Shown here: positions 200 through 30,988 of the stretch, piece by piece
Layout: every line of letters starts with the position of its first letter
Numbering within the stretch: the stretch's first letter is position 1
Translations under genes and position numbers: made by a program
Source: Mongoliibacter ruber
GTDB lineage: Bacteria; Bacteroidota; Bacteroidia; Cytophagales; Cyclobacteriaceae
Length of the DNA: 64,000 bases
Direction of reading: 5' to 3'
Assembly: GCF_003003005.1 (NCBI RefSeq)
Contig: NZ_PVTR01000001.1
Span: 267,108-331,107, forward strand
Notes under the pieces: generated by a model
Told to the model about the DNA's origin: nothing
Database searches by the model: none
What the model saw: the letters and a program-made list of their open reading frames with translations, nothing else

Positions 200-245
200 T
201 TTGTTATGAGTTTGAGTAAAAAAAAAGAAGGCTTGCGCCTCGTCT

Positions 246-935: not shown

Positions 936-939
936 CGAG

Positions 940-1060
940 CTCTAATGTGAGCCGGACTGACATGGGGAGGGGCAACTGAAAGCAAGGTGGACCGGAATAA
1001 AGCCTCTCCTATTTACTTTCTATTTATGCCGGAATACCTTGGATGATCTATGGAAAAAGT
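940..1060. promoter_or_regulatory. conserved non-coding block, copy A (homologous to 16120-16290), directly 5' of radC on minus strand
   Basis: shared cores with copy B: GAAaGCAAGGTGGAcCGGAATAAAgCCTCTCC, CTATTTATGCCGgAaTACCTTG, CCTCCCGCATcGAG; no credible ORF. Confidence 0.4.
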
Positions 1061-1210
1061 TCGGACTTGTGTTGCCCTGTACCCATAACTTTGGTGCACA
1101 TTATAGGCTCGGGTCTACTCGGCTTAGGGATAGAAGCGGTAGCCCACAGGCCGTAAGCGAAGCGAGCGGACGAGGACTACAAGCGGATAGCCCGACCTTT
1201 GGGAAGCCCC

Positions 1211-1241
1211 AAATAAAAAAGCCTTCCATAATGAAAGGCTT
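1211..1241 (-). terminator. rho-independent terminator for the 1270..1617 gene
   Basis: 7-bp stem AAGCCTT/AAGGCTT (1219-1225/1235-1241) followed on minus strand by TTTTATTT. Confidence 0.6.
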
Positions 1242-1269
1242 CTTAACTTATAAGTGAAGTGTGAATCTG

Positions 1270-1617
1270 TTACAATAAGAAGACGTTGCCGCACGAACCA
1301 GGATCATAATGTTTATCTAGCCTTGCGTTGCTTTCTAAGCTTCGTCTCAGATTGTTCAGTTCATCAGCATTTGTCGCCATTCCTCTGATAAGAGTCTCAG
1401 GAAAGAGGGCCTCGCAATACTGGTGAGCTGTGGTGTTAGATAGGTAAGCGGTGGACTTGACGGTAACATCGAAGCCAGCAATTGCCAACACATTCATGTG
1501 ATGGTCATGTGATACATCGATACTGGTCGTCTGGTCATCAAAATCCGCTGCCAGTCCCGGGCTGAAATTCACGATCATCCCGATCGCAAAAATCATCAAT
1601 AGAAGTAGTTTTTTCAT
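1270..1617 (-). CDS. hypothetical secreted protein
   Basis: ATG verified at 1615-1617; N-terminal hydrophobic signal-like segment MKKLLLLMIFAIGMIVNFSPGLAA. Confidence 0.55.
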   Translation of the reverse strand: MKKLLLLMIFAIGMIVNFSPGLAADFDDQTTSIDVSHDHHMNVLAIAGFDVTVKSTAYLSNTTAHQYCEALFPETLIRGMATNADELNNLRRSLESNARLDKHYDPGSCGNVFLL

Positions 1618-1737
1618 TGATAGAGGTTATGTGAATTATGTGAGACTCTAATTTGGCTAAGAAGTCCAAAAAGGTGTAGGACAAAAAAAAGCATCCCTAT
1701 TGGAATGCATTTTAAGAGTGATAGCCCCAGTAATTAT

Positions 1738-1974
1738 TTACTCATTCGAGTCTTTTTTATCAGTTCTCCTGCGGGTGGTCTTGGCTGGCTCTGCCTTGGC
1801 GGGTGCTTTCCTGAGGTAAGGAAATCCGATGGCCAGCAGCTGCTCTGCCTTCGCCGCATTGATTTTGCTAAGATCCACCATTCCCAGCTTAGTGCCGCAA
1901 AGCCCCGGAACGATGCCTACTACAAGGTAGGCACCGTCGAGGATAGGGGTGGTTTTTGGCTTTTTAGCTGACAT
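1738..1974 (-). CDS. hypothetical protein
   Basis: ATG at 1972-1974; co-oriented with neighbours; competing plus-strand ORF 1705..1971 judged antisense artefact. Confidence 0.4.
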   Translation of the reverse strand: MSAKKPKTTPILDGAYLVVGIVPGLCGTKLGMVDLSKINAAKAEQLLAIGFPYLRKAPAKAEPAKTTRRRTDKKDSNE

Positions 1975-1976
1975 GA

Positions 1977-2519
1977 TTAGACAGCAGGGGTGAATGGAAG
2001 CGCATCAATAAACAACGGCGGGTAGAATATTGACCTTACGGTGAACATCGTCATCTTTTCCCCGGCTACTTCGCCTGGTACTTCGATGCTGCCTTCATCT
2101 ATCTCTGCCCACAATCCCGGTGTACCCAAGATCAGGAACTGTCCTCCCATCAATGGCTTGAATCCCACTACCAAAGGTCTGTTCCTGTTGGCTCTCAACC
2201 ATCCGCAAAGGTGGCTGTTCATGGCATTCTTCATGATGGTAAGCGTATTTTCAAAGCTTTTCGCTCCTCTGGCTCCTACGAGTTGAGAAGAGAAAGCATT
2301 TTTTTCAAGAGATCCTTCAAACTTGTGGAATTGCTTTGTTGATTTCATCACAAAGGCAGAAGCGCCTAAATCAACATAATCCTTGGACGCTGTGCCGGCA
2401 CTCAGGTCGGGAAGGTCAGGAAATGTTTCAATGTCGTGATATGCAGCAATGGCCACTTCTACCTGTAAACCGGCAGATTCCTCAAGCTCAATCTCTCCTA
2501 CAAAATCGTATAAGTTCAT
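1977..2519 (-). CDS. hypothetical protein (head-morphogenesis module)
   Basis: ATG at 2517-2519, tightly packed downstream of capsid gene. Confidence 0.5.
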   Translation of the reverse strand: MNLYDFVGEIELEESAGLQVEVAIAAYHDIETFPDLPDLSAGTASKDYVDLGASAFVMKSTKQFHKFEGSLEKNAFSSQLVGARGAKSFENTLTIMKNAMNSHLCGWLRANRNRPLVVGFKPLMGGQFLILGTPGLWAEIDEGSIEVPGEVAGEKMTMFTVRSIFYPPLFIDALPFTPAV

Positions 2520-2529
2520 GGCTGTTGGA

Positions 2530-2895
2530 TTAAAGTTTGACTACTATGGTGGAGTTTTTCTCTACCAGTTTTTTGCAGAGTGCCAGGTCTGCTGCGATGT
2601 CAGATGGAGACAATGCCCCATCTTTGGTGCGCATGCCTTTGGTGACCCTGTACTTTTCTTTACCGATGGTGATCACCGGACCTTTGTTTTCTTTGGAACC
2701 GCTATCCTTAAGCTGATCCTTCAATTCCTCGACATACTCTTTCGCATCAGCTACCTCATTTTTGGCTTCTTCGAGTTCTTTTGCAAGCTTCTCGTTTTCG
2801 GCTTTAAGGGCAGTATTTTCTGCGGTAAGGGTGTCGATTATTTCTTCTGGAGAAGGAGCGGCAGTTGGTGCCGCTCCTGTTTTTTTATTGCTCAT
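2530..2895 (-). CDS. hypothetical coiled-coil protein
   Basis: ATG at 2893-2895, 2 nt after capsid gene; E/K-rich heptad region. Confidence 0.5.
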   Translation of the reverse strand: MSNKKTGAAPTAAPSPEEIIDTLTAENTALKAENEKLAKELEEAKNEVADAKEYVEELKDQLKDSGSKENKGPVITIGKEKYRVTKGMRTKDGALSPSDIAADLALCKKLVEKNSTIVVKL

Positions 2896-2896
2896 C

Positions 2897-3967
2897 TTAG
2901 GCTTGGTCGTTTACGTACAAGTTTTCAAGGTCCCTGAACTGGAAGCCGATCATGTACTTGACGATCGCTTCGTATCCGTGCAGGTTCTCTACTATTTTAC
3001 CGACTTTGTTGGCGTCAGATACCTGGTTCATACCAAGGATCATGTTGCCTTTGTGGGTCATGATGATCCTTCTGGAATCTTTCATCCAAGTCACAGGCTT
3101 GATGGTCAATCGACCTCCTGTACCTTTGAGGATAAATTCTTTTCCTTCCTCGATATCGCTTTTCGCGATTCCCTGACCGGTACCGAATAGCTTGTTGACA
3201 TTGATGGCCAAATCTTCCTGAGCACCAAAGCCCACAGTCGCTACCATGCCTTTGTTTTTGTGTACTTCTGGAATGACAGACCACATGTCCAAGAATGCAT
3301 CATAGGCAGTCGTCTGGTCGTAAGCACCACCAGATCCAGCCACCAAAAGGTTGGTAGCAGCCAGTTCAGATTCGATGATGTGGTGAGGACCGTCGCAGAT
3401 CACTTTGTTATCCACATCTTCCCACTTGACGCCGTGTGTCTCTGGAGATTCACCCGCTAGGGTTTCAGCTTTAGCTCTGTACACGATCTCGTCGAAATAT
3501 ACCAAGTCCCCAATAGCATAGGTCTCAGTGCCATCGAAAGGAGCAATCGTGCCCGGATTGAAAGACAGGTAGAAGTTGTCATTGATCTCTTGCGCGATCC
3601 TTGCAAACTCCTGTTCCCATACCCACTGGCCAAATGGAATTTCCTTCGCATTTGGATCCAGCATCTCAGCCATAAAGGATTCTCTTACTTCTTCCGGGAT
3701 GATCTCGATGATCTTCATCGCACCCTGAGGAGTCAAGATCCTTTCGGACCATTTTCTACCGCCCTTGGCTGTTTTTATGTTCGTGTTCAGACGCCTTACG
3801 CCTCTGTCCACTACCATCTTTTTCAGCGTCCTGGGCGAGCGAACGTTTCTAAGGACATCGATGTCCTTGGCTACGTCCAAGCCGTTCAGCATCTGATGGA
3901 TCAATTTTTTGTCGTATATCTCGACATACTTCTTGATCGCTTCGATGTCAGTTCTTACTTGTGACAT
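2897..3967 (-). CDS. putative phage major capsid protein (HK97-like)
   Basis: 356 aa, directly downstream of ClpP-type prohead protease/scaffold gene; size and position typical of MCP; no motif-level proof. Confidence 0.5.
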   Translation of the reverse strand: MSQVRTDIEAIKKYVEIYDKKLIHQMLNGLDVAKDIDVLRNVRSPRTLKKMVVDRGVRRLNTNIKTAKGGRKWSERILTPQGAMKIIEIIPEEVRESFMAEMLDPNAKEIPFGQWVWEQEFARIAQEINDNFYLSFNPGTIAPFDGTETYAIGDLVYFDEIVYRAKAETLAGESPETHGVKWEDVDNKVICDGPHHIIESELAATNLLVAGSGGAYDQTTAYDAFLDMWSVIPEVHKNKGMVATVGFGAQEDLAINVNKLFGTGQGIAKSDIEEGKEFILKGTGGRLTIKPVTWMKDSRRIIMTHKGNMILGMNQVSDANKVGKIVENLHGYEAIVKYMIGFQFRDLENLYVNDQA

Positions 3968-4016
3968 GTTGGTGGTTGTTAGTTGGTTTAGTTTTCAAAT
4001 GGATGTAGGGAATGGC

Positions 4017-5246
4017 TTATTGGCCTATTCCCATTTCTGCTCTTTGTCTTTTGATTTCCACATCTGTCTCAGAAGTGAAATTGACAGCGCCTTCTTCTCC
4101 ATCGATCTTGTCAGGATCATCGGATTTTGCGTTGACTGGCTTCACGCCGCTCTTGCGATAGGCTTCGACAGTTACCTTGAGGTTTTTGACCTCAGTGTCC
4201 AGCTTTCCTTTTTCGGTAGAGAGCGTCTCTTTTTCCTCAGTCAATGAAGAGACAAGTGTCTCGGCGTTGGCTTTTTCGGTAGAGAGGTTTGTGATCTCTT
4301 CGGAAAGTGTGGCAGTGGCTTCGGTAATCCTGTTCTGGACTTCCTCATCGGTGAATTTTTCACCGGCATCGTGGTACGCCTGAAGCTCGGCCTTGATGGC
4401 AGCGAGATCTTCGGCGGTCACAGTCTCCTTGGAAAGGAGAGAAAGTGAGTTTTCGAAATTCATATCTGTATTGGTGGGATTTGGTGTCGGAGTGGGTGCA
4501 GGCGGATCCTGCCCTTCCTGCTTGGCAGGGGTCAGCGTGAAAGTCTTTCTGAGGTGGTTGGTAATGCGGGTGATCAGTGACTCTTCGCTGTGCTGTTCTT
4601 TTTTGTAGAGATTCATCACCTCCCCAAAAGCCATGTTGGTAATGTTTGAAGGAGGCGCATCCTCAGACTCGTAGTCTTCTATCTCGTTTACAAATCCTGC
4701 TTCCTTGGCTTCTTCAGCAGTGAGGAAATGATCTTTGCCATCGAAATATTTGTCTTGGATGTCCTCTTTGGACTGGCCGGAGATGGAGGCGAGGCGATCA
4801 ATGATCACTCCTTCGTACTTTTCCATCATATCTGCGGTATCGCGCATCTTGTCAGCATTACCAAAGGCAATTCCGCTGGCGCGGTGGATCATCAGAAAAG
4901 CATTCTTCGCCGTGTGGATAGTCTTACCTGCGAGTAGGATATAGCCCCCAGCGGAAGCGGCCAGACCGTCATTGTAGGTATGGACATCCTTCTTGCTGTT
5001 GGCGATGACATTGAAAATCGGGAAAGCGTGGTACAGGTAACCTCCAGGGCTGTTGATGTAGATGTTGATCCTATCGAAGTCTTTTTCAAGCTTCTTGAAT
5101 TCACTGACAAACTTGTCAGCCTGGTTTTTCATCTTATAGGTGTCCAGATCAAAGTCGGGAATCGCACCGTATAGCATGATATCGACAGAGGACTTGTCTT
5201 CTGCCTTATTGAAAATCTCGTAAAAACCGGTAGTCTGCTTGCTCAT
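4017..5246 (-). CDS. ClpP-family (S14) prohead protease fused to acidic coiled-coil scaffold-like C-terminus
   Basis: N-terminal ClpP core (NSPGGY...AASAGGYILLAGK...MIHRASG) then Pro/Thr linker and E/K-rich coiled coil. Confidence 0.8.
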   Translation of the reverse strand: MSKQTTGFYEIFNKAEDKSSVDIMLYGAIPDFDLDTYKMKNQADKFVSEFKKLEKDFDRINIYINSPGGYLYHAFPIFNVIANSKKDVHTYNDGLAASAGGYILLAGKTIHTAKNAFLMIHRASGIAFGNADKMRDTADMMEKYEGVIIDRLASISGQSKEDIQDKYFDGKDHFLTAEEAKEAGFVNEIEDYESEDAPPSNITNMAFGEVMNLYKKEQHSEESLITRITNHLRKTFTLTPAKQEGQDPPAPTPTPNPTNTDMNFENSLSLLSKETVTAEDLAAIKAELQAYHDAGEKFTDEEVQNRITEATATLSEEITNLSTEKANAETLVSSLTEEKETLSTEKGKLDTEVKNLKVTVEAYRKSGVKPVNAKSDDPDKIDGEEGAVNFTSETDVEIKRQRAEMGIGQ

Positions 5247-5308
5247 CTTGCGCTTTGTTTAGCACAAGATGTGGATTGATAGGGGTCGGGTATAGGACGT
5301 TTTTTGGC

Positions 5309-5716
5309 CTAAATGAGGGGAATCTGAAGGGAAAGGGAGATAATAGTTTCGCGGTTGTCTGCATTGCCGGCACCGGAATCACGGGTGTATTGGAAGGTCA
5401 TCGGTGTATCGTCCGAACCTAAAAAGTGCCGCTCTCCGTTGGCGGTAGTGAGGTAAGCCATCACTTCTTTTCCTGCAAACTGAGAGTGGTAATCTGAATC
5501 CCTGGGAATGGTACTTCTCACAGCAAAGGAAATGACATCACCCTGATCAGTGTCGTTGGATTCTTCTCTGATATCGGATCGCTCTAATACCAGTGGGGCT
5601 TCTTTGAAAAAATCAATCAGGTCCTGTGCAGATGGAAAGCCATCCGTCAAGGTCAGCTGGGGATGGTGGGAAGCGAGTCCTATATATAAGGAGGTGATGA
5701 GGGATATTCTTTCCAT
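5309..5716 (-). CDS. hypothetical protein (signal-peptide-like N-terminus)
   Basis: ATG at 5714-5716; MERISLITSLYIGLAS hydrophobic start. Confidence 0.45.
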   Translation of the reverse strand: MERISLITSLYIGLASHHPQLTLTDGFPSAQDLIDFFKEAPLVLERSDIREESNDTDQGDVISFAVRSTIPRDSDYHSQFAGKEVMAYLTTANGERHFLGSDDTPMTFQYTRDSGAGNADNRETIISLSLQIPLI

Positions 5717-5755
5717 GAGGGAAATTTACAAAGTGTATTTTTTTACCTCTTGACA

Positions 5756-6190
5756 CTACCAAAGTGGCAATATGTTGCGCATTTGCTCTTTATTCTTGTA
5801 GCGTTGCCATTGCTTGTAAGCAGTATCAGGTTCCAGTTCTTCAAATGAAATGTCGTATTTGTCCATAAACTTTCTGATGGCTTCGGTTGCTTCCATCCCC
5901 CCTTCCACAGCTGCCTCTATGTAGAGCAGCATTTTTGTTTTGAATTCGTTTTCCATCATTCGGGAAAGAGTGTACAACTTATATATGGAGAGGTATTTAC
6001 ATACGACTGTTATTCTGACTTGACTATCTGTGGTATTTTCTATGTATTGGCGGATCTGATCGGGGTTGCGTTGTTTGTAGGGACTGCAAAAAATCATCTG
6101 GGTGATGTTGAGGTGTTTGGAATAGCCATAGTCCCGCTTGAGCATTTTTTTCACAGGCTTAGATACCGGAATTTCGTAGGCTTTCATCAT
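5756..6190 (-). CDS. hypothetical protein
   Basis: ATG at 6188-6190; 144 aa. Confidence 0.5.
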   Translation of the reverse strand: MMKAYEIPVSKPVKKMLKRDYGYSKHLNITQMIFCSPYKQRNPDQIRQYIENTTDSQVRITVVCKYLSIYKLYTLSRMMENEFKTKMLLYIEAAVEGGMEATEAIRKFMDKYDISFEELEPDTAYKQWQRYKNKEQMRNILPLW

Positions 6191-6248
6191 ACGTGAAAAA
6201 TACTTTGTATTATCATAAGAATGTAGGACAAATAAAGACCCTATTTTA

Positions 6249-6533
6249 TTAGAGATTATACGTCTTGATAAATGCTTCCCTTACCTTCTTGTCGATGGCA
6301 AAGTAATCTTTGAGCGCAGTCAGGTAATCATCCTCCGTAGCCGGGACAGCGATGGTCTCCATTATTTCGAGTGCGGTAGATTCGTGTTTGAATACATCAC
6401 ATCCCCTGGCATGTAGAAATGAACCGTCATTCTGTGCAGTCACAGAGACGAAATAGAGTAATGCTTTTCCCGAAATAGACATTTCTAATTTGTAGGTTTT
6501 GCGTTGGGAATCGCTACGGAAGTACTTTGCCAT
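6249..6533 (-). CDS. hypothetical protein
   Basis: track ORF starts at a TTG; first ATG at 6531-6533 (MAKYFRSD...) with TAcaaTTTT -7-like box just upstream. Confidence 0.5.
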   Translation of the reverse strand: MAKYFRSDSQRKTYKLEMSISGKALLYFVSVTAQNDGSFLHARGCDVFKHESTALEIMETIAVPATEDDYLTALKDYFAIDKKVREAFIKTYNL

Positions 6534-6619
6534 AAAATTGTATTTTTCCAATGAGGTCAAAAAATGGGGTAGTAAGTAATAATTACATGTAAAATAAGTG
6601 ATTTTTTCGTGAATTAAAA

Positions 6620-6880
6620 AAACGTGTTACAAATGTTACATTTGTAGTATTTCCCCCTATCCTATTGATATTCTGAAATTTAGGTATGTAACATTTTTAT
6701 CAAAAAATGTTACAAGTCTGTAGTATTTGTTGACATTGTTACATGCAATATGATTGCAGGTAACAAACATTTGTTGACAAGACTGTCATTTTGTTGACAT
6801 GTGTTGACATGGAAAACCCTTGTTTATTGGCTTTATTACCCTATTTTTAAAAAATGTAACAAATGTAACAAATGTAACGC
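6620..6880. promoter_or_regulatory. repeat-dense intergenic control region upstream of the RM gene
   Basis: TGTTACA x2 direct (6625-6640); 28-bp palindrome TGTAACATTTTTatcaAAAAATGTTACA (6687-6714); TTGTTGACA x4 (6727-6809); (AAATGTAAC)x3 tandem (6852-6878); TGTAGTATTT x2. Confidence 0.5.
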
Positions 6881-6977
6881 CTTTTTTGAGCGGTGAAATT
6901 TGGTCTAAAACCAAAGCAGACATTTAACATTTTAGTTATAGTACTTTGTAAAGATTGTAACCTTTTTACCTTAACAG

Positions 6978-9900
6978 ATGAGTTTGGAATTGAACGATTA
7001 CATTGGTAATCTGAATAGGCGTTACCGTTTGGGCAATGCCACAGAGCATACTTTTAGAGGAGACCTGCAAAACCTGATCGAAACCCTCGTTCCTGGTGTA
7101 GCTGCTACCAACGAACCAAAGCGGATCAAGTGCGGTGCTCCGGATTATGTCATCACCAAAAAAGATATTCCCATTGGATACATAGAAGCCAAGGATATTG
7201 GAGTCGATCTCAGGTCTAAGGTTTTGAAAGAACAGTTTGACCGGTATAGGGAATCTTTGGAGAACCTGATCATTACAGATTACCTCGATTTCCATTTCTA
7301 TATCAATGGCGAATTGGTGAAGACCATTGCCATAGCAGAAATAAAATCGAATGGGATATCCCCTCTTCCAGCCTTTTTTGAAGAATTTACAGATTTGATC
7401 AGGAGTTTCTGTTCATTCTCCGGACAGACCATCAGAAGTCCGAAGAAACTTGCCGAAATGATGGCGGGTAAAGCAAAGCTTCTTGCCAGGATAATAGAGA
7501 ACTCTCTGAATTCGGATGCATCTGAAGAAGTGGACAGTTCATTGAAAGATCAATACACTGCCTTTCAGCAGATATTGATCAATGATATCAAGACAAATGA
7601 ATTTGCCGATGTATATGCCCAGACGATTGCCTATGGAATGTTTGCTGCACGGCTGTATGATCAGACCTTGGATACCTTCTCCAGAAAAGAAGCTGCAGAA
7701 CTTATTCCAAAATCCAATCCTTTCCTACGGAGGCTCTTCCAATATATAGCTGGATATGATTTGGATGAAAGGATTGTATGGATAGTGGATGCATTAGCGG
7801 ATATTTTCCGTGCCACGGATGTTGCTTCTCTGCTCAAAAACTTTGGGAAGTCAACCAAACAGGAAGATCCTATCATACATTTTTATGAAACTTTCCTTGC
7901 CAACTATGACCCAAAGCTAAGAAAGGCCCGTGGAGTCTGGTACACACCAGAACCGGTGGTAGATTTTATCGTGCGGGCAGTAGATGATATTCTCAAGACT
8001 GAATTTGATCTTCCTGATGGACTGGCCGATACCAGTAAAACAAAAATTAAGGTAGCCATTCCTACTCATGACCACAGGTTTAAGGGCGGTATGCGTGAAA
8101 TAGAGCAGGAATTGCACAGGGTTCAGATACTGGATCCGGCCACTGGCACGGGTACTTTCCTCGCAAAGGTGATAGACCATATCCATCAGACGAAGTTTGC
8201 GAATCAAAAAGGAATATGGTCCCAGTATGTGGAAAATCACCTTATCCCAAGGCTTAACGGATTTGAGTTGCTCATGGCTTCTTATGCCATGGCCCATCTT
8301 AAGCTTGACCTTTTGCTGATGGAAAGCGGATATAAACCAAGCAAGAGTCAAAGATTCCGAGTATATCTGACCAATAGTTTGGAAGAACATCATAAAGACA
8401 CAGGAACTCTTTTTGCCAGCTGGCTTAGTGCAGAAGCCAACGAAGCCAATCAGATTAAGCGGGATACTCCTGTGATGTGTATCATTGGAAACCCTCCCTA
8501 TAGTGGTGAGAGTGCCAATAAAGGCGAATGGATAATGAAGCTTATGGAGGATTACAAAAAAGAGCCCGGAGGAAAGGAGAAGCTTAAAGAAAGAAACCCT
8601 AAATGGATCAATGATGATTATGTAAAGTTTTTACGCTATGGTCAGCATTTTATTGAAAAGAATGGAAGTGGCGTACTAGCCTTTATCAATCCTCATGGAT
8701 TTTTGGACAATCCAACATTTAGAGGAATGCGTTGGAATCTGCTAAAAACCTATGATAAGATTTATACTATTGATCTTCATGGGAATAGTAAAAAGAAAGA
8801 AACAGCACCTGATGGATCGATTGATCAAAATGTTTTTGATATTCAGCAAGGAGTCTCAATAAATCTCTTTATAAAAACAGGTAATAAAAAGTTAAATGAT
8901 TTAGGTAAACTATTTCATTTTGATCTATTTGGTAAACGAGAGATGAAATATGATTTTTTGAAGAAAAATTCCTTGAGATCTATTTCTTATAAAGAAATAC
9001 CAATAAATATTCCTTTGCATTTTTTTGTTGATAAAGATTTTGAATCGAAAAAACAATACGACAATGGATTTTCCATTTCAAAAATTTTCGAATCAAATAG
9101 TGTGGGTATTGTAACGGCAAGAGATCATTTTACCATTCATTCAACAAAAAATGAGTTGAAAAGTACAATAGAGCTATTTATGAGTTTAGAGGATGAAATA
9201 GCTCGTACAAAATTTAAATTGGGAAAAGACGTTAGGGATTGGCAAATTAATTTTGCAAAAAAAGATTTAGAAAAAAACTATCCTCATCAAGGGGTAATAA
9301 CCCAAATTAGCTATCGGCCATTTGATTTAAGATGGACTTTTTACACTGGGAAATCCAAAGGATTTCATTGCTATCCGAGAACAGAAGTAATGAAAAACTT
9401 CACAAAAGAAAATATTGGATTAGTATATAAATTAGGTAATAGCGAAGAAAAGTCCGCCTCAGTCATGGTTTCAAAAAACATGATTGATTTTAGAAGTTGG
9501 TCAAGACCTGGAATGCAAGGAGGAGATTACATTGCTCCGTTGTTTTTATATGACGAAATTGACGATCTTTTTACTAAAAGTAAGTTTTCAAGAGAACCCA
9601 ATCTTAACCCCAAAATCCTTAAAGAAATCGAAAAGGCATTAGGCTTGGGATTTATAGCAGAGCGACCTGAAGGAGATGGAGTTTGTTATGCAGATAGTGG
9701 TGAACTGCGAACTGAGTATAGACAATCATTTGCACCAATTGACCTTCTGGATTACATCTATGCAGTATTGCATAGCCCTGCATATAGGGAGAAGTACAAA
9801 GAGTTTTTAAAGATTGATTTTCCGAGAGTCCCCTACCCTACGGATCAGGAAAGTTTCTGGAAGTTGGTAGAGCTGGGAGGCCAGATCAGAAAACTCCATC

Positions 9901-10208
9901 TGATGGAATCTTCCGATCTACAAAGATTGGATACCGGATATCCGGAGGATGGAGATAATGTGGTAGAAAAACCACATTACAAGAATGGCCAGGTACATAT
10001 AAATGCTACCCAATATTTTGAGAATGTACCACAGGTGGCTTGGGAATTTTACATTGGAGGATATCAGCCAGCACAGAAGTGGCTTAAAGACCGTAAAGGT
10101 CGGCAGCTATCCTATGAGGATATCCTTCACTACCAAAAGATCATTAAAGCCCTTCAGGAAACAGATAGGTTGATGAAGGAGATTGATGAGGTTGGGTCGG
10201 TTTCTTAA
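6978..10208 (+). CDS. MmeI-like Type IIL/IIG restriction-modification enzyme (PD-ExK nuclease + gamma-class N6-adenine MTase + TRD in one chain)
   Basis: N-terminal PDYV...IEAKD (PD-ExK); DPATGTGTFL (AdoMet motif I); IIGNPPYSG (motif IV, ~8493-8504); 1076 aa. Confidence 0.85.
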   Translation: MSLELNDYIGNLNRRYRLGNATEHTFRGDLQNLIETLVPGVAATNEPKRIKCGAPDYVITKKDIPIGYIEAKDIGVDLRSKVLKEQFDRYRESLENLIITDYLDFHFYINGELVKTIAIAEIKSNGISPLPAFFEEFTDLIRSFCSFSGQTIRSPKKLAEMMAGKAKLLARIIENSLNSDASEEVDSSLKDQYTAFQQILINDIKTNEFADVYAQTIAYGMFAARLYDQTLDTFSRKEAAELIPKSNPFLRRLFQYIAGYDLDERIVWIVDALADIFRATDVASLLKNFGKSTKQEDPIIHFYETFLANYDPKLRKARGVWYTPEPVVDFIVRAVDDILKTEFDLPDGLADTSKTKIKVAIPTHDHRFKGGMREIEQELHRVQILDPATGTGTFLAKVIDHIHQTKFANQKGIWSQYVENHLIPRLNGFELLMASYAMAHLKLDLLLMESGYKPSKSQRFRVYLTNSLEEHHKDTGTLFASWLSAEANEANQIKRDTPVMCIIGNPPYSGESANKGEWIMKLMEDYKKEPGGKEKLKERNPKWINDDYVKFLRYGQHFIEKNGSGVLAFINPHGFLDNPTFRGMRWNLLKTYDKIYTIDLHGNSKKKETAPDGSIDQNVFDIQQGVSINLFIKTGNKKLNDLGKLFHFDLFGKREMKYDFLKKNSLRSISYKEIPINIPLHFFVDKDFESKKQYDNGFSISKIFESNSVGIVTARDHFTIHSTKNELKSTIELFMSLEDEIARTKFKLGKDVRDWQINFAKKDLEKNYPHQGVITQISYRPFDLRWTFYTGKSKGFHCYPRTEVMKNFTKENIGLVYKLGNSEEKSASVMVSKNMIDFRSWSRPGMQGGDYIAPLFLYDEIDDLFTKSKFSREPNLNPKILKEIEKALGLGFIAERPEGDGVCYADSGELRTEYRQSFAPIDLLDYIYAVLHSPAYREKYKEFLKIDFPRVPYPTDQESFWKLVELGGQIRKLHLMESSDLQRLDTGYPEDGDNVVEKPHYKNGQVHINATQYFENVPQVAWEFYIGGYQPAQKWLKDRKGRQLSYEDILHYQKIIKALQETDRLMKEIDEVGSVS

Positions 10209-10219
10209 AGTTAAATTTC

Positions 10220-11062
10220 ATGAATAAAGATCAATTGTTAAAAGTGATAGAATCTACAATTGTATCTATCTCTGCCTCTATCCCAATAGCAGCTACTTTT
10301 GCAACTGGATATACAGAATATAGAAACAGTTTACAAGAGCGAAATGTAAAAGAGATAATTTACACCCTCTTTAAGAGCCTTAAATCTTTAGAGGAAAGAG
10401 TTGATAAGGAATATCTAAAATCAGGAGATTTTAAGTCTTTAACAATGAAAGTATGTTTGCATGGTATGGATGAGATTCATGAAGAAAAAAGAAAGTATCT
10501 ATCTTATTTTTTAGCAAACTCTTGTGTTGTTGAAAATTCAAAAGATTTGATTAAAAATTCAGTTTTAGAAACCTTAATGAGGTTGAGCAAATTTGATTTA
10601 ATAGTTCTTAATGTATTATTTGAAGGAGTTAAAGGGGATTTTGGCGAGGTAATTAGAGGGAAAAAAAAATTCGATCTAAACTTTGCCTTTTTGATTTTTG
10701 AAGAAAGCTATGTTACTGGACTTTTACCTCAATATAATGAACTAGATATAAGAATTACCCTTCATTATTTAGAATCAATAGGTGTTATCGAAAATGCAAT
10801 TTCAAGAACATTCAACAGAAATTTTTCAATCGATATCGATGATTATCTTCGATCTAAAAGATTGGATGAAATAATGAATCGGATCCTTGAATTACAGTCA
10901 AGTTTGATGACAACTAATAAAAAAATCGAATTAAGAGAATTAGAAAAGGAACAAAAAGAACTGGTCGGTTTTAACAATCAGATTGAAAAGAATTATAATA
11001 AGCCATATATTATAACAAGTCTTGGGGTTAAAGTTCTGGATTATATTTCCATGATTGAATAA
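10220..11062 (+). CDS. hypothetical protein, RM-island partner
   Basis: ATG at 10220, 11 nt after RM stop; 280 aa, helical, no recognisable motif; very AT-rich. Confidence 0.6.
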   Translation: MNKDQLLKVIESTIVSISASIPIAATFATGYTEYRNSLQERNVKEIIYTLFKSLKSLEERVDKEYLKSGDFKSLTMKVCLHGMDEIHEEKRKYLSYFLANSCVVENSKDLIKNSVLETLMRLSKFDLIVLNVLFEGVKGDFGEVIRGKKKFDLNFAFLIFEESYVTGLLPQYNELDIRITLHYLESIGVIENAISRTFNRNFSIDIDDYLRSKRLDEIMNRILELQSSLMTTNKKIELRELEKEQKELVGFNNQIEKNYNKPYIITSLGVKVLDYISMIE

Positions 11063-11067
11063 AAAAA

Positions 11068-12552
11068 ATGAAAGAAGTCAATTTACTTTCAGTACTTAAT
11101 GCGGATAAAAGTTTGTCAGAGCCTTTACGATCTAATTTTTTTGAACATTACGGAATAAAAGAAAAATTAGGTGAATTCCAAGATTTAGATGTCTTAGTCA
11201 ATGAATTATTGGTTCATAGATTGGAAATATCCATGTTAGATTCATTTTATTTGGGATATTTAATTCCTCAAATAAGTAAAGAATTTGATTTATTAAGAAT
11301 TGGTGATTCAAATATTATTAACATCGAATTAAAGTCTGTAAATACTGGAGAAGCTATTTTAAAACAACTTCTAAGAAATAAATATTATTTGAGTTTTTTT
11401 AAAAAAGATATTAGACTTTTCAGTTTTGTTTCGAGTGAAAAAAAATTATACACACTAGAAAGAAATTCCGAATTAAAAGAATTTGATATTAAAGAATTAG
11501 CAAAATTATTGCATCGGCAAAAAATTGAAGAAGTTGAAAATATTGATAAACTTTTTAATCCCTCAAATTATTTAGTCTCTCCGTTTAATTCAACAAATAA
11601 TTTTTTAGAAAAGAAGTATTTCTTGACTGGGCAACAGGAAGAGTTCAAAAAATCAATTTTATTAGGAATAAATATGGCAGAAGCATCCTATTTCTCCATT
11701 TCTGGTGAGGCAGGAACTGGAAAAACTTTGTTGATTTATGACATAGCGAGAGAATTGAAGGAAAATAATAAAAGGGTTTTAATTGTTCATGTTGGAAATT
11801 TAAATGAAGGCCACTTTTTTTTAATCGATGCATTTCAATGGGAAATAATTTCAATTAAACAGTACAAAGAAACGGATTTTAGCACCTATGACTTAGTCAT
11901 AATTGATGAAACTCAGAGGATTTATCCTAAACAATTAAGGGATATTATTAGCAAAATCGATGCAATTGGAAATAATTGTATTTTCTCTCATGATATTAAA
12001 CAGGTATTGCAAAAAAGTGAAGAGGAAAATAATATTCCAGAACTAATAAAAAAAGAAACTAAAGCTCAGTCTTTTCGACTTTCAAAAAAAATACGAAGTA
12101 ACCTCCATATAACATCCTTCATAAGTTCACTTTTTAATAAAAGCATAAATAATAAAGCTATAGATAAAAGTTGCATTGAGATAAAGTTTTTTGATAGTTA
12201 TCAAGTAACAAAAGCTTATTTAAATTTTAAAACGGAAAAAGGATGGAAAGCTATAAATTACACACCTTCAAGTTTTAATAAATATCCATACGATTCATAT
12301 GCTATAGATTTTACAGAAAGTGTTCACGGTGTAATTGGTCAAGAATTCGACAAAGTAATAGCAGTAATTGACGATCACCTTAGTTATGAAGGGAATGAGC
12401 TGGGAACTGTAAAAAGAGGGAAAAAATTTTATTATAGTTTAGATAAAATGCTTTTTCAAACAATGACCAGAGCAAAAAATAAGTTGTGTATTGTAATAAT
12501 TAATAATCCTTCGGTTTTGGATAGGTGCTTGTCAATTTTAAATGGACAATAA
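11068..12552 (+). CDS. P-loop NTPase with SF1-helicase-like core and NERD-like N-terminal region (DUF2075/Nhi-like)
   Basis: Walker A GEAGTGKT, Walker B LVIIDETQ, helicase-motif-VI-like VHGVIGQEFDKVIAV, N-terminal D-x6-ELK; starts 5 nt after upstream gene. Confidence 0.65.
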   Translation: MKEVNLLSVLNADKSLSEPLRSNFFEHYGIKEKLGEFQDLDVLVNELLVHRLEISMLDSFYLGYLIPQISKEFDLLRIGDSNIINIELKSVNTGEAILKQLLRNKYYLSFFKKDIRLFSFVSSEKKLYTLERNSELKEFDIKELAKLLHRQKIEEVENIDKLFNPSNYLVSPFNSTNNFLEKKYFLTGQQEEFKKSILLGINMAEASYFSISGEAGTGKTLLIYDIARELKENNKRVLIVHVGNLNEGHFFLIDAFQWEIISIKQYKETDFSTYDLVIIDETQRIYPKQLRDIISKIDAIGNNCIFSHDIKQVLQKSEEENNIPELIKKETKAQSFRLSKKIRSNLHITSFISSLFNKSINNKAIDKSCIEIKFFDSYQVTKAYLNFKTEKGWKAINYTPSSFNKYPYDSYAIDFTESVHGVIGQEFDKVIAVIDDHLSYEGNELGTVKRGKKFYYSLDKMLFQTMTRAKNKLCIVIINNPSVLDRCLSILNGQ

Positions 12553-12565
12553 AATTCATGTTACT

Positions 12566-14131
12566 TCAAGATAAACTTTTAACGCACTGTCCGATTATCC
12601 ACTCCTGCACCGGTGGTGTGACGGCATTGCCACATTGCTTTACCTGGTCACGCTGATTGCCGAGTATGATGTAGTCAATATCGAAAGCCATGGAAGCCTT
12701 GACCTCAGGAGCTTTGATCATTCGGTAATAGCAATCTTCAATCAGGGGTTTTTGGTAGTTGATGAGGTAGGATCTGTCACGGGTGTTTACTGTACCGATT
12801 GGCTCAGATATCTTGGAAGCCTGATGACTGCCGTAATAGTATTGGATAAAGCTGCTCCAAGATTCATGTGTGACTATGCCATTGTTGATATTACTCGTCT
12901 GTGCCGGCATAGATTCGGTTGAAGGTTTTGACATGGATTTCCCTTTGTTCTGGACAACCAAGGGAACTCCCATCAGCGAATGGTTGATTCCTCCTGCAGT
13001 AATGGTTGACATGGGATGATTGGCGGGTTTTGCTTCACCCGTTTTGTTCATCTCAATTATCCATGGAGTCACTAGAGCTGAGGTTTGTCTGGTAGTTTGG
13101 GTAAGAAAAGGATCTGTTACCTTTTTGGCATTTTTCATTTGAGATCCATTTTCTGTTTTGATGACCATTGGAGTGGCTAAAGAATGACTTAAGTCAGTGC
13201 ATTGAGTTCCTATAGGTGATTCTATTGTGCTTTTTACCCTTCCGTTTACTCCGCTTACCTGACGTGTTTGAATTAAAAGCGGATCCACTCCGTACCTGTC
13301 CAATCCCCACTGAATCCTTTTGAGGGTATTGGGTGAAAGCGCCTTTTTCCTTTCTCCGATCTTTGTACCCAAATCGCTCCAATCAATGGCATTGAATGCC
13401 GCATAGTAGTAGGGTTCTACCACTGTGCCATCTTTCGGGCATTTATATTGATATTGGAAGCGGTATTTCCCGAATTTTTTTTGAGGGTTTTTCCAAACCT
13501 GCACGGCGTGGACATCCTTTCCGCAACATGGACAATGTGCCAATGGACGGTAATCAAGGTCAGGAGCTTTGTTTCCTTTCTTCCAGAAAACGACATACAT
13601 CCTATCCCTACTCTGGGGAGTTGGCCAGAAGTGCATGGAATTCAGGTAAAGACATTTGTGCTCATATCCAAGTCGGTGCATGGCTGCCAACCAAACATCG
13701 AATAGTACCCACTGAGTACGGGCTTCCACCACATTTTCGACAATCACAATTTCATAATCATGGTATTCTGCAAATCTGCATACGTCCCACATCGTGGCTC
13801 TGCTCCGTTCGGTGGATGGGTCAATGATTCCCTTGTCAAAAAGGTCGATTGTTGCTTTTACATTTTTGTGACGATTGCCACCTGCTGGACTGTGGGTGGT
13901 GCATTCTGGAGAAGTGATCAGAATATTGGTGCTTGGGTATCTTCTGGGATCACAGGCAGATATATCAGTGCAATCGTGAAGCGTATCGGGAAAATTGCTG
14001 TTGTGGGTATCAATGGCAAGTTTCCAGTGATTCAAAGCCATTTTGACTTCTACTCCTGCTTTTCTTGCTCCCTGCGAACTGCCACCGGCACCGCAAAACT
14101 GGTCTGTTGCTGTTATATATGAGTTCTTCAT
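12566..14131 (-). CDS. dcm: DNA (cytosine-5) methyltransferase, orphan
   Basis: FCGAGG (motif I), IVIVENV (motif VI), QCGNAVTPPV (motif X); motif IV is atypical SPEC rather than PCQ. Confidence 0.8.
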   Translation of the reverse strand: MKNSYITATDQFCGAGGSSQGARKAGVEVKMALNHWKLAIDTHNSNFPDTLHDCTDISACDPRRYPSTNILITSPECTTHSPAGGNRHKNVKATIDLFDKGIIDPSTERSRATMWDVCRFAEYHDYEIVIVENVVEARTQWVLFDVWLAAMHRLGYEHKCLYLNSMHFWPTPQSRDRMYVVFWKKGNKAPDLDYRPLAHCPCCGKDVHAVQVWKNPQKKFGKYRFQYQYKCPKDGTVVEPYYYAAFNAIDWSDLGTKIGERKKALSPNTLKRIQWGLDRYGVDPLLIQTRQVSGVNGRVKSTIESPIGTQCTDLSHSLATPMVIKTENGSQMKNAKKVTDPFLTQTTRQTSALVTPWIIEMNKTGEAKPANHPMSTITAGGINHSLMGVPLVVQNKGKSMSKPSTESMPAQTSNINNGIVTHESWSSFIQYYYGSHQASKISEPIGTVNTRDRSYLINYQKPLIEDCYYRMIKAPEVKASMAFDIDYIILGNQRDQVKQCGNAVTPPVQEWIIGQCVKSLS

Positions 14132-14184
14132 TTTGATTTTAGATTTTAGATTTAAGAATTAAGATTTAAAAAGGGATAATCTTT

Positions 14185-14595
14185 TCAGAGGTCTGCCTCC
14201 ATTACTTTAAGCTCTGCTTCGAGGCTTGCAATTTTATTGATGGTATTGATATAGCGTTGATCCTCCTCAATTGGAAAAAGGGAATCCCATTTGGTGACTA
14301 CTTTTGCCAGTTTGTTTTTGTATTCTGTGACCTTTCCTTTCTTTGCTCTGAGCTTATTAATCTTTTGCTGATCAAGCGTTTTTTGGCTGGATTCACAATG
14401 TCCCCACTTGAATTCTACATGGGCTTTGGGGTGTTGAACCTGAGCTAAAGCAGCCCGGTATTTGAAATACCAATCCCATTTATTACGGATTTCAAATCGC
14501 ATATCATCCCATCTGATGATTTGAAGGAGGTTTCCCCCCTTCTTATCAAAAACCTTGATTAGGACAAAGTGGGCATTATCATATACTGTAATCAT
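14185..14595 (-). CDS. hypothetical protein
   Basis: ATG at 14593-14595 overlapping upstream stop (ATGA). Confidence 0.5.
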   Translation of the reverse strand: MITVYDNAHFVLIKVFDKKGGNLLQIIRWDDMRFEIRNKWDWYFKYRAALAQVQHPKAHVEFKWGHCESSQKTLDQQKINKLRAKKGKVTEYKNKLAKVVTKWDSLFPIEEDQRYINTINKIASLEAELKVMEADL

Positions 14596-16100
14596 GATTG
14601 CCCTCCTTTCTTTGGCTCAAACAATGGATATCCTTTGATTCGGGATATTTCCTGATTGAATCTGGCCCATACGTTTTCGTCTTTGAACTTGAAGTGGATG
14701 GTGCCTTTTTTGTATCCTTTGATCTCGAAAAATTCCCAGTCAAACCACTGCCCAAATTCTACCTGTGGCAATCTTTTGCAGTCTGGATTTTTCTCCAAGT
14801 AGGAAAGCATATCTGATTCATTTCTGAAATAGACCGGATATGCCCTGAATTTTACGCTTTGATCCAGTAGAACTTGGCCCTCTCTTTCCACCATAAATTC
14901 ATGGTTGCACCGATCATACAGCGATATGGATTTGTTGTAATCCTTTCCTGTGATGTAGCATAGGGCTTTGAGTAGGTCCTCTATTTTTTCCAAGTTGTGT
15001 GAACCGTACCTAACAGCAAATTTTCCACTCCAGCTTATCTCGGTCAATCCGTCCAGGATGAATTTTTGATTGACCAGGTAATGGCTATTGGTTTTCCATC
15101 CTTCGACTGCATACCTGTTTTCATGGTAGTGCTTTGTGATGCGGTCAAATACATCTTCCAATGCCCGATCCATTCTTGACCTTTGTGTACCCACTATCAT
15201 TTGGATCATGGCATAGATATTCTTCATCGTGAAGGGTATCTTTTGCTGCGTCTCTACAAATTTGTTGATGTCATCCTTCACTGATTTGGTGACATACTTC
15301 CCCATGTTCATCTTATCCAGCACATAGTTCCAAGCGGATTTTTGCAGATCTTTTTTGAATTCCTCACGGGTGGTCTTGGCTTCGTCTGTGGTCAGGTTGA
15401 GACCTATTTTGGATTTGTAGAAAGTTTTGGTAAGCTCATTCATCCGGACAGCAGCATTAAGCTGTTCATCGAAGATTTTGACCGATCCGACATACCTTCC
15501 TACTATATCCCGGACAAAGTTGTAGCGCTGCAATCCTTCCACTTGCGCTTCTTCCTCCTCATCCATAAAGAATCCTTCAAACTCGCTTTCTCCGGATTTT
15601 GGTTTTCTGAGGATGATATAAGCCACTTCCACACCTGTCTTTCGTTCCGCATTGGAAAAGCAGTCACCCAGATAATCCATCTGTCCATAATCATCTATGA
15701 TCCTCTTGAGCACTTTTCTTGTTCTGTTGTAGATGTTGGCCACGGTTTCCCAATTGCAAAGTGCCCTGATCTCGCAGCCTTCGGGAGCAATTTCCCAAGC
15801 ATGAAGGATATGCCGTGCATCTTCACTAAATGGAGGATTCATTATTATGTGTGAAATATGGCTTATCTGAGCGCTTTTAACTTTGAAGAAATCATCCTCG
15901 ATTACCCTGCATTTGAGCATAGCGCGGAGTTTGGGTTCTTTTTCAGAGGCAATTACTTCTGCGCCTCGGATAAGACAATAATCCACCATATTTCCAGAAC
16001 CTGCATGAGGCTCCAGTATTTTGGATTCTGGGAAAGCAATCCCTTCGGTGATCCGCTCGATGACTGCTTCGGGTGTTGGGTAAAAGTCTGAGTTAAACAT
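14592..16100 (-). CDS. N6-adenine DNA methyltransferase with ~330-aa C-terminal domain of unknown function
   Basis: FYPTPEAV, EPHAGSGN (motif I), NPPF (motif IV) in first ~110 aa; remainder unassigned. Confidence 0.7.
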   Translation of the reverse strand: MFNSDFYPTPEAVIERITEGIAFPESKILEPHAGSGNMVDYCLIRGAEVIASEKEPKLRAMLKCRVIEDDFFKVKSAQISHISHIIMNPPFSEDARHILHAWEIAPEGCEIRALCNWETVANIYNRTRKVLKRIIDDYGQMDYLGDCFSNAERKTGVEVAYIILRKPKSGESEFEGFFMDEEEEAQVEGLQRYNFVRDIVGRYVGSVKIFDEQLNAAVRMNELTKTFYKSKIGLNLTTDEAKTTREEFKKDLQKSAWNYVLDKMNMGKYVTKSVKDDINKFVETQQKIPFTMKNIYAMIQMIVGTQRSRMDRALEDVFDRITKHYHENRYAVEGWKTNSHYLVNQKFILDGLTEISWSGKFAVRYGSHNLEKIEDLLKALCYITGKDYNKSISLYDRCNHEFMVEREGQVLLDQSVKFRAYPVYFRNESDMLSYLEKNPDCKRLPQVEFGQWFDWEFFEIKGYKKGTIHFKFKDENVWARFNQEISRIKGYPLFEPKKGGQS

Positions 16101-16119
16101 ATTTTTTGTAATGCCTGCT

Positions 16120-16290
16120 TTATCCTCCCGGCATGGAGACTAAGTGATAAAATGAAAGCACCTTATCACGAAGTCTCAAGGACTGAAGGCAAGGTGGAAC
16201 GGAATAAAACCTCTCCCCCGAGCTATCGGGGCCCTTCCTATTTATGCCGTAGTACCTTGTGTGGATTTGATGTCAGTTAGGACCTGTGTC
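16120..16290. promoter_or_regulatory. conserved non-coding block, copy B (homologous to 940-1060), directly 5' of the 502-aa MTase
   Basis: shares three conserved cores with copy A in same order and orientation. Confidence 0.4.
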
Positions 16291-16346
16291 CTTGATGCGA
16301 GTAAATTTGTGTGTTCATAGTATCACCACTTTCTTGATTTCAGATT

Positions 16347-16934
16347 TCAGATTGGGTTCAGTTCAGAAGTTTCAAATGATTCTTCATTGATAGGTTCAAT
16401 AGTTTTCAGATATTTTTTATTGAGATTTAAATTGATAATCTGACCTTTTATTCCCGATTTGATCAGAGAATTGAAATTTGATTCGTTGAAAGCAATAAGT
16501 ACTGAAGGGCCTCCAGAATTTGCCTTTGCCTTAATTCCTTCAACCGTATAAAAGCTTAGTCTACCTCTGATGAAAAGCATACCATAAGCTTTTTCCCAAG
16601 CCCAATCAAAAAAGGTAGTTGTTTCAGTTCTTGCAAAAATTAAAGCAATACCATTTTTGTGAGCTGCCAGCTTTTCTAGCCAAACTTTTGATTGGTCACC
16701 GTACGGGGGATTACACCATACTCTTCCAAACCAGTCTTTAGTAAGCCCATTTTCCACTTTGGAAAAATGGGTTGAAGCAGTATCCCATGGTCGGTTAATA
16801 GGCGAGCATGGATCAAGATCAAAAGGACCTAATGCATTAATAATTTCGGGTGGTGTTAGCCATTCATCATTCTTCATTTTGGAAGATTGATGAGACCCTA
16901 TTCCGTTTTTTTTCTTGTTTCTTGGCTCTAGCAT
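16347..16934 (-). CDS. dam: phage-type DNA N6-adenine methyltransferase (Dam, T1/pfam05869-like)
   Basis: WCNPPYGD catalytic motif and family-typical flanks. Confidence 0.85.
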   Translation of the reverse strand: MLEPRNKKKNGIGSHQSSKMKNDEWLTPPEIINALGPFDLDPCSPINRPWDTASTHFSKVENGLTKDWFGRVWCNPPYGDQSKVWLEKLAAHKNGIALIFARTETTTFFDWAWEKAYGMLFIRGRLSFYTVEGIKAKANSGGPSVLIAFNESNFNSLIKSGIKGQIINLNLNKKYLKTIEPINEESFETSELNPI

Positions 16935-30974: not shown

Positions 30975-30988
30975 ACCAATAAAATCTT

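Follow-up and report, generated by a model that had tools for sequence, protein, structure and literature searches.

Three adjacent genes on the plus strand break into a phage-related, minus-strand element in Mongoliibacter ruber, and the question that they raise is whether they make up a new cooperating immunity module or are known kinds of defence gene that stand side by side. We analyzed a window of 64,000 nucleotides, by which we mean the whole stretch of DNA under study. Gene 1 (6978-10208, plus strand, 1076 aa), gene 2 (10220-11062, plus strand, 280 aa; WP_106131836) and gene 3 (11068-12552, plus strand, 494 aa) each start with ATG and are separated by 11 nt and 5 nt, respectively, and all other large open reading frames (ORFs) from 1 to ~29 kb of the window lie on the minus strand. 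This arrangement of three intact, same-strand ORFs is as it was given in a preliminary description of the locus, which also correctly reported genes 2 and 3 to be AT-rich: the GC content is 0.390 in gene 1, 0.286 in gene 2 and 0.272 in gene 3, compared with 0.452 in the left flank, 0.417 in the right flank and 0.392 in the whole window. ORFs of 280 and 494 codons at 27-29% GC are far above chance expectation, and strong homologues exist for all three genes. The 5-nt gap between genes 2 and 3 and their similar GC content would also fit a locally co-adapted pair.

With a probability that we put at roughly 80%, a phage-derived element here carries a small defence islet as cargo, and the islet's three immunity genes, each independent and self-sufficient, are probably transcribed together from the upstream region at 6561-6977. 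The proposal that this is a defence locus is borne out by a restriction-modification (RM) enzyme encoded by gene 1, a member of the Nhi/AbiO family encoded by gene 3 and an Abi_alpha-like protein encoded by gene 2. The islet is an ordinary one, with known kinds of system placed side by side, and not a new cooperating module; gene 2 is its one uncharacterized part.

The flanking genes include matches to a head maturation protease (phrog_94, 4e-53), to phrog_874, phrog_1048 and phrog_32703, to a primase and to an HTH repressor. The term "prophage-like", as originally applied to the element, is apt with regard to these phage-type matches but not beyond them: terminase, portal, tail and integrase genes were not found in 1-29 kb of the window, so that prophage status is not established. 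A search for an "empty-site" relative of the element via its protease returned one viral contig, which has nothing but the protease in common with the element and was thus uninformative; the putative capsid gene had no match among phage genomes, and an exact look-up with the RadC-like gene for DNA to the left of the window gave no record.

Judged by its domain content, gene 1 is a single-chain, DrdV-like Type IIL/IIG RM enzyme. It matches the PADLOC model REase_MTase_IIG (PDLC03610) with 1206 bits, and it unites on one chain an N-terminal PD-ExK nuclease, a gamma-class N6-adenine methyltransferase (MTase) and a Type ISP-like target recognition domain (TRD), in agreement with the initial view of a self-sufficient one-chain enzyme. 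The nuclease motif (P55-D56...E70-A-K72; 7140..7193, plus strand), located by a regular expression on the translation, falls inside the HSDR_N match (Pfam, 3e-4, aa 54-117). The MTase core, placed by Pfam (N6_Mtase, 4e-10, aa 380-576) and motif location, is bounded by DPATGTG (motif I, aa 386-392) and NPPY (motif IV, aa 505-508), at 8133..8501 on the plus strand. The TRD (aa 702-1068; 9081..10181, plus strand) is covered by PF18135, Type_ISP_C (9e-92, profile positions 1-342 of 342). Of the motifs originally listed, PD-ExK and NPPY are present, whereas a literal FxGxG is absent and the SAM motif I reads DPATGTG; the catalytic motifs (PD-ExK, motif I and NPPY) are all intact. No helicase or translocase family was matched in gene 1 in the Pfam search.

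The lineage of the enzyme, as read from these profiles, is that of DrdV and the Type ISP enzymes and not the MmeI family, to which it had been likened. The only MmeI model that reaches gene 1 is MmeI_Mtase (31.7 bits, aa 372-517), that is, the MTase core, and the TRD belongs to Type_ISP_C; MmeI_N, MmeI_hel, MmeI_TRD and MmeI_C are absent from the Pfam matches at E<=1, and no MmeI structure was found among the PDB matches at E<=1e-3. The nearest solved structure is DrdV (7LO5, 1e-35), followed by LlaBIII (5e-30) and LlaGI (2e-28). DrdV, a Type IIL enzyme, consists of one chain of 1029 aa in which the MTase and TRD are similar to their Type ISP counterparts; gene 1 likewise encodes one chain, ~1000-1100 aa long, in which an N-terminal nuclease is combined with a gamma-class N6A MTase (NPPY) and a Type ISP-like TRD, although it is only across the MTase and TRD (aa 381-813, E 1e-35) that the two sequences are similar. 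With LlaGI and LlaBIII, which are Type ISP enzymes, gene 1 shares the MTase-TRD module but lacks their helicase/ATPase domain. By analogy with DrdV, gene 1 would methylate one adenine of an asymmetric site on resident DNA and cut incoming DNA that lacks the modification, a fixed distance away from the site.

Gene 3 had been described as an "Nhi-like or DUF2075-like" nuclease-helicase within a candidate uncharacterized module. The guess at its affinity was right, but the gene is not uncharacterized: sequence comparison places it, over its full length, in Nhi/AbiO, a single-gene defence family that already has a name. It matches the PADLOC models AbiO (1.2e-171, aa 1-492 versus 1-468 of 468) and Nhi (2.7e-168, aa 1-492 versus 1-470 of 470), and its Pfam matches are SLFN-g3_helicase (3.4e-10) and Viral_helicase1 (2.6e-7), with an N-terminal PD-(D/E)xK nuclease followed by an SF1/DUF2075 helicase. 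More than 3500 homologues, with a length of ~495 aa, were identified; a genome scan with gene 3 alone gave no matches, and one with the gene 3 alignment did.

Across 33 homologues, the residues expected of such an enzyme are invariant. In the nuclease motif (E72-F-D74...E87-x-K89; 11281..11334, plus strand), these are E72, D74, E87 and K89. The pattern D-x6-ExK that was noted earlier does exist (D80...E87-x-K89), but the family-invariant aspartate is D74 and not D80. The three helicase motifs were found where they had been placed, namely, Walker A (GEAGTGKT, aa 213-220; 11704..11727, plus strand), with invariant G213, G216, T217, G218 and K219; Walker B or motif II (VIIDETQR, aa 277-284, with VIIDE at 277-281; 11896..11919, plus strand), with invariant D280, E281, Q283 and R284; and a C-terminal motif (HGVIGQEFD, aa 420-428; 12325..12351, plus strand), with invariant H420, G424, Q425 and E426. 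The corresponding family patterns are GxxGTGK, DExQR and HxxxGQE.

The study that described Nhi presents it as one enzyme that unites a PD-(D/E)xK nuclease with a DUF2075 helicase and acts alone experimentally, with homologues in Firmicutes, Bacteroidetes and Proteobacteria, frequently beside methyltransferase genes, and two in phages; the homologues tested there show 32-36% similarity to SERP2475. Gene 3 resembles Nhi (SERP2475, Staphylococcus epidermidis) and AbiO (Lactococcus) in its full-length match, architecture and invariant catalytic residues, and its family is likewise stand-alone in defence islands, plasmids and prophages, where CBASS, a Type I RM system, RES and SLFN_AlbA_2 are among the neighbours. 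It differs in that it is far from the staphylococcal enzyme in sequence and lies on a phage-related element in a host from the Cyclobacteriaceae, 5 nt 3' of an unrelated gene. By analogy with staphylococcal Nhi, the nuclease and helicase of gene 3 would destroy phage replication intermediates and thereby block phage DNA accumulation. The closest tested Bacteroidetes homologue, WP_013870910 (a clade II protein of the Nhi study, with 47% identity at 100% query coverage), did not protect S. aureus when expressed there, so that a defence function in the clade of gene 3 is presumed.

This inactivity in a heterologous host, together with the mosaic GC profile of gene 1 (0.43, 0.31, 0.41), which suggests recombination, could be taken to mean that the islet is decaying cargo in which at least one gene is inactive. 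All three ORFs are, however, intact and of full length for their families, and every catalytic residue is retained, which makes decay the least credible of the explanations that we considered.

Gene 2, in which no motif had been recognized, is predicted to be all-helical: a conserved helix pair at the N-terminus is accompanied by a helical domain and a winged helix. The conserved segment at the N-terminus covers aa 8-40. The winged helix is predicted confidently, and its wing appears to bear a coiled-coil hairpin (aa 202-250). A membrane anchor at the N-terminus was considered and rejected: the Kyte-Doolittle 19-residue maximum of 1.55 is borderline, and the model has the helix pair there. Close relatives are very scarce, the family numbering ~10 members among 5.8 billion clusters. 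Gene 2 had no match in phage genomes by tblastn, a metagenome scan with the family alignment gave no confirmed match, and a Foldseek search against BFVD and PDB gave no significant global match.

Gene 2 is probably a distant relative of Abi_alpha (PF14337), for which the Pfam gathering threshold is 29 bits. Matches to PF14337 were observed in 12 of 60 gene 2 relatives, with a best E of 3e-9 and all below the Pfam cut-off; the matched stretch takes in the greater part of the profile (in one case, positions 6-173 of 196), and the sub-threshold matches extend to P0240-P0244. Homologues 69% identical to gene 2 score 27.1 and 26.2 bits, under the threshold; gene 2 itself (Pfam, E<=1), its relatives at 33-44% identity and the relatives P0124-P0128 gave no match to PF14337. 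Comparison by hhalign of the family profile with one Abi_alpha protein (locus L091, 9086-9910) returned a probability of 0.1%, and the motif order of the two appears alike by eye.

The sole characterized relative is Abiα of Enterococcus faecalis (EF2833), a single-gene abortive-infection protein of 272 aa that is encoded by prophage 6 of strain V583 and causes premature lysis. The likeness to Abiα lies in length (280 versus 272 aa), single-gene organization, carriage by prophages or defence islands and the absence of any known catalytic domain; the difference is that the matches to PF14337 (DUF4393) are all sub-threshold in the family and missing for gene 2, and that hhalign was negative. Gene 2 homologues occur as single genes on prophages or in defence islands: in two loci (L001 and L002), a tRNA-Leu-like gene, identified by eye, stands on one side of the homologue and a DsrE gene on the other; in two others (L088 and L089), the homologue adjoins an integrase; and in L091, it sits within an OLD/CBASS/DpnII island, between an OLD-family ATPase and CBASS.

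From these features we infer the function of gene 2 as a whole: it would be a divergent Abiα-like single-gene protein, most likely a stand-alone abortive-infection or sensor-effector protein, the winged helix of which would bind phage nucleic acid or protein. More tentatively, gene 2 might represent an undescribed, rare single-gene anti-phage family that is missed by current defence-finder models and in which an Abiα-like helical N-domain is joined to a winged helix bearing a coiled-coil hairpin; perhaps, in this element, it also shares a transcript with Nhi and forms a second layer, triggered when Nhi is evaded. A winged helix could also belong to a transcription regulator or another phage accessory protein that is present in the islet by chance and is not an immunity effector. 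We regard this as improbable because the homologues are isolated single genes with no conserved target operon adjoining, one of them occupies the dense defence island of L091, the sub-threshold Abi_alpha matches recur across the family, and the winged helix is only about one-third of the protein, the N-terminal 100 residues being the best conserved.

The preliminary description further held, rightly, that genes 2 and 3 are not accessories of the RM enzyme, and it proposed a separate or cooperating immunity module; the genomic contexts do not sustain a cooperating one. In such a two-gene module, the Nhi-like nuclease-helicase would be licensed or held in check by gene 2, in the role of sensor, regulator or partner; the 5-nt same-strand gap and the similar GC content (0.286 and 0.272) fit this arrangement, and the predicted winged helix could sense nucleic acid. 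The gene 2-gene 3 pair is, however, not conserved. Of the outcomes that the preliminary description had named as refuting it, membership of a named system applies to gene 3 and lack of conservation to the pair. A gene 3 profile search found an Nhi gene in 0 of the 7 loci of the gene 2 family, and among the 106 loci with Nhi homologues (80 genomic and 26 viral), only L074 contains a gene 2 relative, a distant one. There, a gene of the gene 2 superfamily lies upstream of the Nhi homologue on the same strand, but the two are 500 bp apart and differ in GC content (0.40 versus 0.32). No recurrent neighbour emerged from the 80 genomic loci, the largest neighbour family having 5 members in mixed upstream and downstream positions. 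This, with the absence of gene 2 relatives from 105 of the 106 loci, suggests that the gene 3 family needs no obligate partner, and Nhi functions alone in experiment. Nor does AT-richness, which had been read as a sign of acquisition, indicate a joint arrival: Nhi homologues are more AT-rich than their own flanks in 98% of 104 loci, and low GC is a trait of both families wherever they are found, so that it is no proof that genes 2 and 3 arrived together. We therefore consider the two-gene module very unlikely.

Read as an islet of three independent systems, the locus is a further case of a phage-derived element with stacked immunity genes, which would guard both the host and the element itself against rival phages. 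It puts both Nhi/AbiO and a Type IIL enzyme like DrdV in Cyclobacteriaceae and offers a natural setting for the activity of clade II Nhi homologues in a native-like host. The practical value is modest: gene 2 and its ~10 close relatives are compact candidates for studying the action of Abiα-like proteins.

The three genes would probably be transcribed together from the AT-rich, divergent intergenic region 5' of gene 1 (6561..6977, GC 0.285), which is probably the promoter/operator region of both the islet and the minus-strand phage operon. Of the nine copies of the heptamer TGTTACA in the window, 7 fall in 6625-6870; nothing was found in support of these repeats as an RM recognition site or a C-box. 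The region also contains four copies of TTGTTGACA, an imperfect inverted repeat of 36 nt (6617-6652/6852-6887) and TAnnTTTG boxes at 6637 (plus strand), 6867 and 6876 (both minus strand).

The three plus-strand genes of Mongoliibacter ruber (the source organism according to the names attached to exact protein matches) are open reading frames encoding proteins of 1076 aa (gene 1, 6978-10208), 280 aa (gene 2, 10220-11062) and 494 aa (gene 3, 11068-12552). They are separated by 11 and 5 nt, respectively, and all other sizeable open reading frames from window position 1 to about 29 kb lie on the minus strand, which confirms the observation in the preliminary description. The interpretation attached to that observation holds only in part. 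Two outcomes that had been set out in advance as refuting it apply: gene 3 is a member of an already named system, and the proposed pairing of genes 2 and 3 is not conserved. The best-supported reading is that of three independent defence layers carried by one mobile element, in which gene 1 would restrict unmodified DNA, gene 3 would attack phage replication intermediates as a nuclease-helicase, and gene 2 would function as an Abiα-like protein. We infer these activities by analogy with DrdV, Nhi and Abiα. The locus is an ordinary defence islet, in which gene 2 is the sole uncharacterized component.

Gene 1 matches the PADLOC model of Type IIG fused restriction-modification enzymes (PDLC03610) with 1206 bits, and Pfam searches identified an HSDR_N-like nuclease (aa 54-117), an N6_Mtase domain and a complete Type_ISP_C target-recognition domain (TRD; 9e-92) in the same chain, in agreement with the original assignment to self-sufficient Type IIL enzymes. 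The nearest solved structures are 7LO5 (1e-35), LlaBIII and LlaGI. The first of these is DrdV, a single-chain Type IIL enzyme of 1029 aa, with a methyltransferase and TRD that resemble those of Type ISP enzymes. The MmeI domain models recognize the methyltransferase core alone (31.7 bits). Given the IIG score, the Type_ISP_C TRD and DrdV as the closest structure, gene 1 belongs to the DrdV lineage rather than to the MmeI family, to which it had been likened. Gene 1 is also a compositional mosaic, in which the GC content changes from 0.43 to 0.31 and back to 0.41; the low-GC stretch (8501-9500), which runs from just after the NPPY motif into the start of the TRD and is flanked by ends at 0.41-0.43, suggests a recombined or swapped segment.

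Gene 3 had been taken for an Nhi-like or DUF2075-like nuclease-helicase within a candidate uncharacterized defence module. The PADLOC models for AbiO (1.2e-171) and Nhi (2.7e-168), two names that annotation tools give to the same proteins, both match it end to end. Homologues of this length (about 495 aa) number more than 3500 and come from Bacteroidota, Bacillota, Proteobacteria and other lineages. Among them is the Lacinutrix protein WP_013870910, which shares 47% identity with gene 3 (query coverage 100%) and was assayed in the Nhi study as the homologue from clade II Bacteroidetes. Alignment of 33 homologues shows the following residues to be invariant: E72, D74, E87 and K89 of the nuclease, G213 and G216-K219 of Walker A, D280, E281, Q283 and R284 of Walker B, and the C-terminal H420/G424-Q-E426. 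The nuclease motif is accordingly D74...E87-x-K89 and not the one beginning at D80; apart from this residue and the FxGxG of gene 1, which is literally absent (motif I reads DPATGTG), the motifs reported earlier are present. What the analysis shows is family membership and residue conservation. From the full-length matches, the likeness to WP_013870910 and the invariant catalytic residues, we assign gene 3, by sequence, to the Nhi/AbiO system and do not regard it as an uncharacterized NTPase. According to the Nhi paper, Nhi is a single enzyme combining a PD-(D/E)xK nuclease with a DUF2075 helicase that stops phage DNA accumulation, sensitivity to it is affected by a phage single-stranded-DNA-binding protein, and its homologues are often encoded close to methyltransferases and occasionally by phages. 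A caveat is that the Lacinutrix homologue was not protective when assayed in Staphylococcus aureus. Several Nhi homologues lie within a few hundred bases of a viral contig end (L093, L098-L101 and other IMG/VR loci); likewise, Streptococcus Javan phages (H2, H3) have their match at the record end. Such placement is consistent with a moron-like location at the ends of prophages.

Gene 2 itself has no match in Pfam, PADLOC, NCBIfam or PHROGs. A word-indexed search retrieved two relatives only, both with 69% identity, and an exhaustive profile search retrieved 116 representatives, 8 of them below 1e-30. For the two close relatives, matches to Pfam Abi_alpha (PF14337; 5e-6 and 9e-6) span positions 6-173 of the 196-position model and reach 27.1 and 26.2 bits, short of the cut-off of 29. 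This family is matched by 12 of 60 gene-2 relatives (best 3e-9), no other family recurs, and five further relatives found with a close-family profile (P0240-P0244) bear precomputed PF14337 labels. Two results speak against a link to Abi_alpha: family members at 33-44% identity have no PF14337 match, and hhalign comparison of the gene-2 family with one true Abi_alpha protein was negative; by eye, the order of conserved motifs in the two is alike. Abi_alpha is named for Abiα (EF2833), a 272-aa single-gene product of prophage 6 of Enterococcus faecalis V583 that makes infected cells lyse prematurely. We consider it probable (about 0.65) that gene 2 encodes a distant member of the Abi_alpha superfamily.

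The comparative data argue against genes 2 and 3 forming a cooperating module, as previously proposed. Gene-2 relatives are solitary in seven loci, none of which contains a match to the gene-3 profile. They are found just upstream of a DsrE gene (L001, L002), in the former case after a tRNA-Leu-like gene as read by eye, convergent with phage-like genes (L005), adjoining an integrase (L088, L089), and without informative neighbours (L090). In a metagenomic defence island (L091, 3983-11140), the relative P0240 lies between an OLD-family ATPase gene (AAA_15/TOPRIM) and a CD-NTase/TIR-STING pair, followed by a second, stronger Abi_alpha gene and a DpnII-type restriction-modification (RM) system, so that two different Abi_alpha-superfamily genes occupy a single island. 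Conversely, among 106 Nhi-homologue loci (80 genomic and 26 viral), only one, from Rheinheimera sp. YQF-1 (L074), has a gene-2-superfamily gene, namely a distant member of 232 aa located 500 bp upstream of the Nhi homologue, with a GC content of 0.40 versus 0.32 for the Nhi gene; the order there (2839-7476) is umuD/umuC, the 232-aa gene (4759-5457) and the Nhi homologue (5962-7476). Nearest-neighbour clustering of the 80 genomic loci yielded no family larger than 5, and a gene-1-like enzyme does not recur beside the Nhi homologues of the genomic or viral loci. Nhi homologues have CBASS as a neighbour in L003 and, in L004, a Type I RM system together with RES and SLFN_AlbA_2.

The AT-richness of genes 2 and 3 had been taken as a sign of separate acquisition. 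The GC content is 0.390, 0.286 and 0.272 for genes 1 to 3, and 0.452 and 0.417 in the left and right flanks. Across 104 loci, however, the Nhi homologue is lower in GC than the flanking DNA in 98% of cases, with a mean difference of 9.5 points, and four of five gene-2 relatives are at about 0.27-0.29 whatever the host. Low GC is therefore a general mark of both mobile defence families and says nothing on a shared origin of the two genes.

Upstream of the islet, the intergenic region 6561-6977 is AT-rich and rich in repeats. It contains seven of the nine TGTTACA heptamers of the window (within 6625-6870, left copies forward and right copies reverse), an imperfect inverted repeat of 36 nt (6617-6652/6852-6887) and four copies of TTGTTGACA(T) (6726-6810). 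Three TAnnTTTG boxes, which we take to be Bacteroidetes -7-like, overlap the repeats. The region looks like an operator/promoter array that separates the islet from the phage head operon, and genes 1-3 are probably expressed from it.

The flanks are related to phages and encode a ClpP-type head maturation protease (4017-5246; phrog_94, 4e-53), proteins matching phrog_874 (4e-61), phrog_1048 (2e-31) and phrog_32703 (3e-134), and DUF5906 primase-like, HTH_3 repressor-like and RadC-like proteins. Because terminase, portal, tail and integrase genes were not found in window positions 1-29 kb, and the window as a whole contains no tRNA gene, "phage-derived element" is a safer designation than "prophage". 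A 356-aa protein (2897-3967) without matches is possibly a capsid protein; no terminase or portal genes precede it and the protease within 1-6560, and the element could represent an incomplete phage or one resembling a satellite, or could extend past the window start. Three consecutive minus-strand DNA methyltransferase genes adjoin the islet (12566-16934), namely C5 (12566-14131; PF00145), DUF4942 (14592-16100; phrog_32703) and Dam-like (16347-16934; PF05869); as no cognate nuclease was seen for them, they probably serve phage self-protection from host restriction. Just past the repressor-like gene, on the plus strand (29552-38022), a PspA/IM30 gene is followed by open reading frames of 210 and 674 aa, the latter without a Pfam match, and by a 1618-aa DUF3686, DUF7902 and AAA ATPase gene, which may constitute a separate stress or defence operon.
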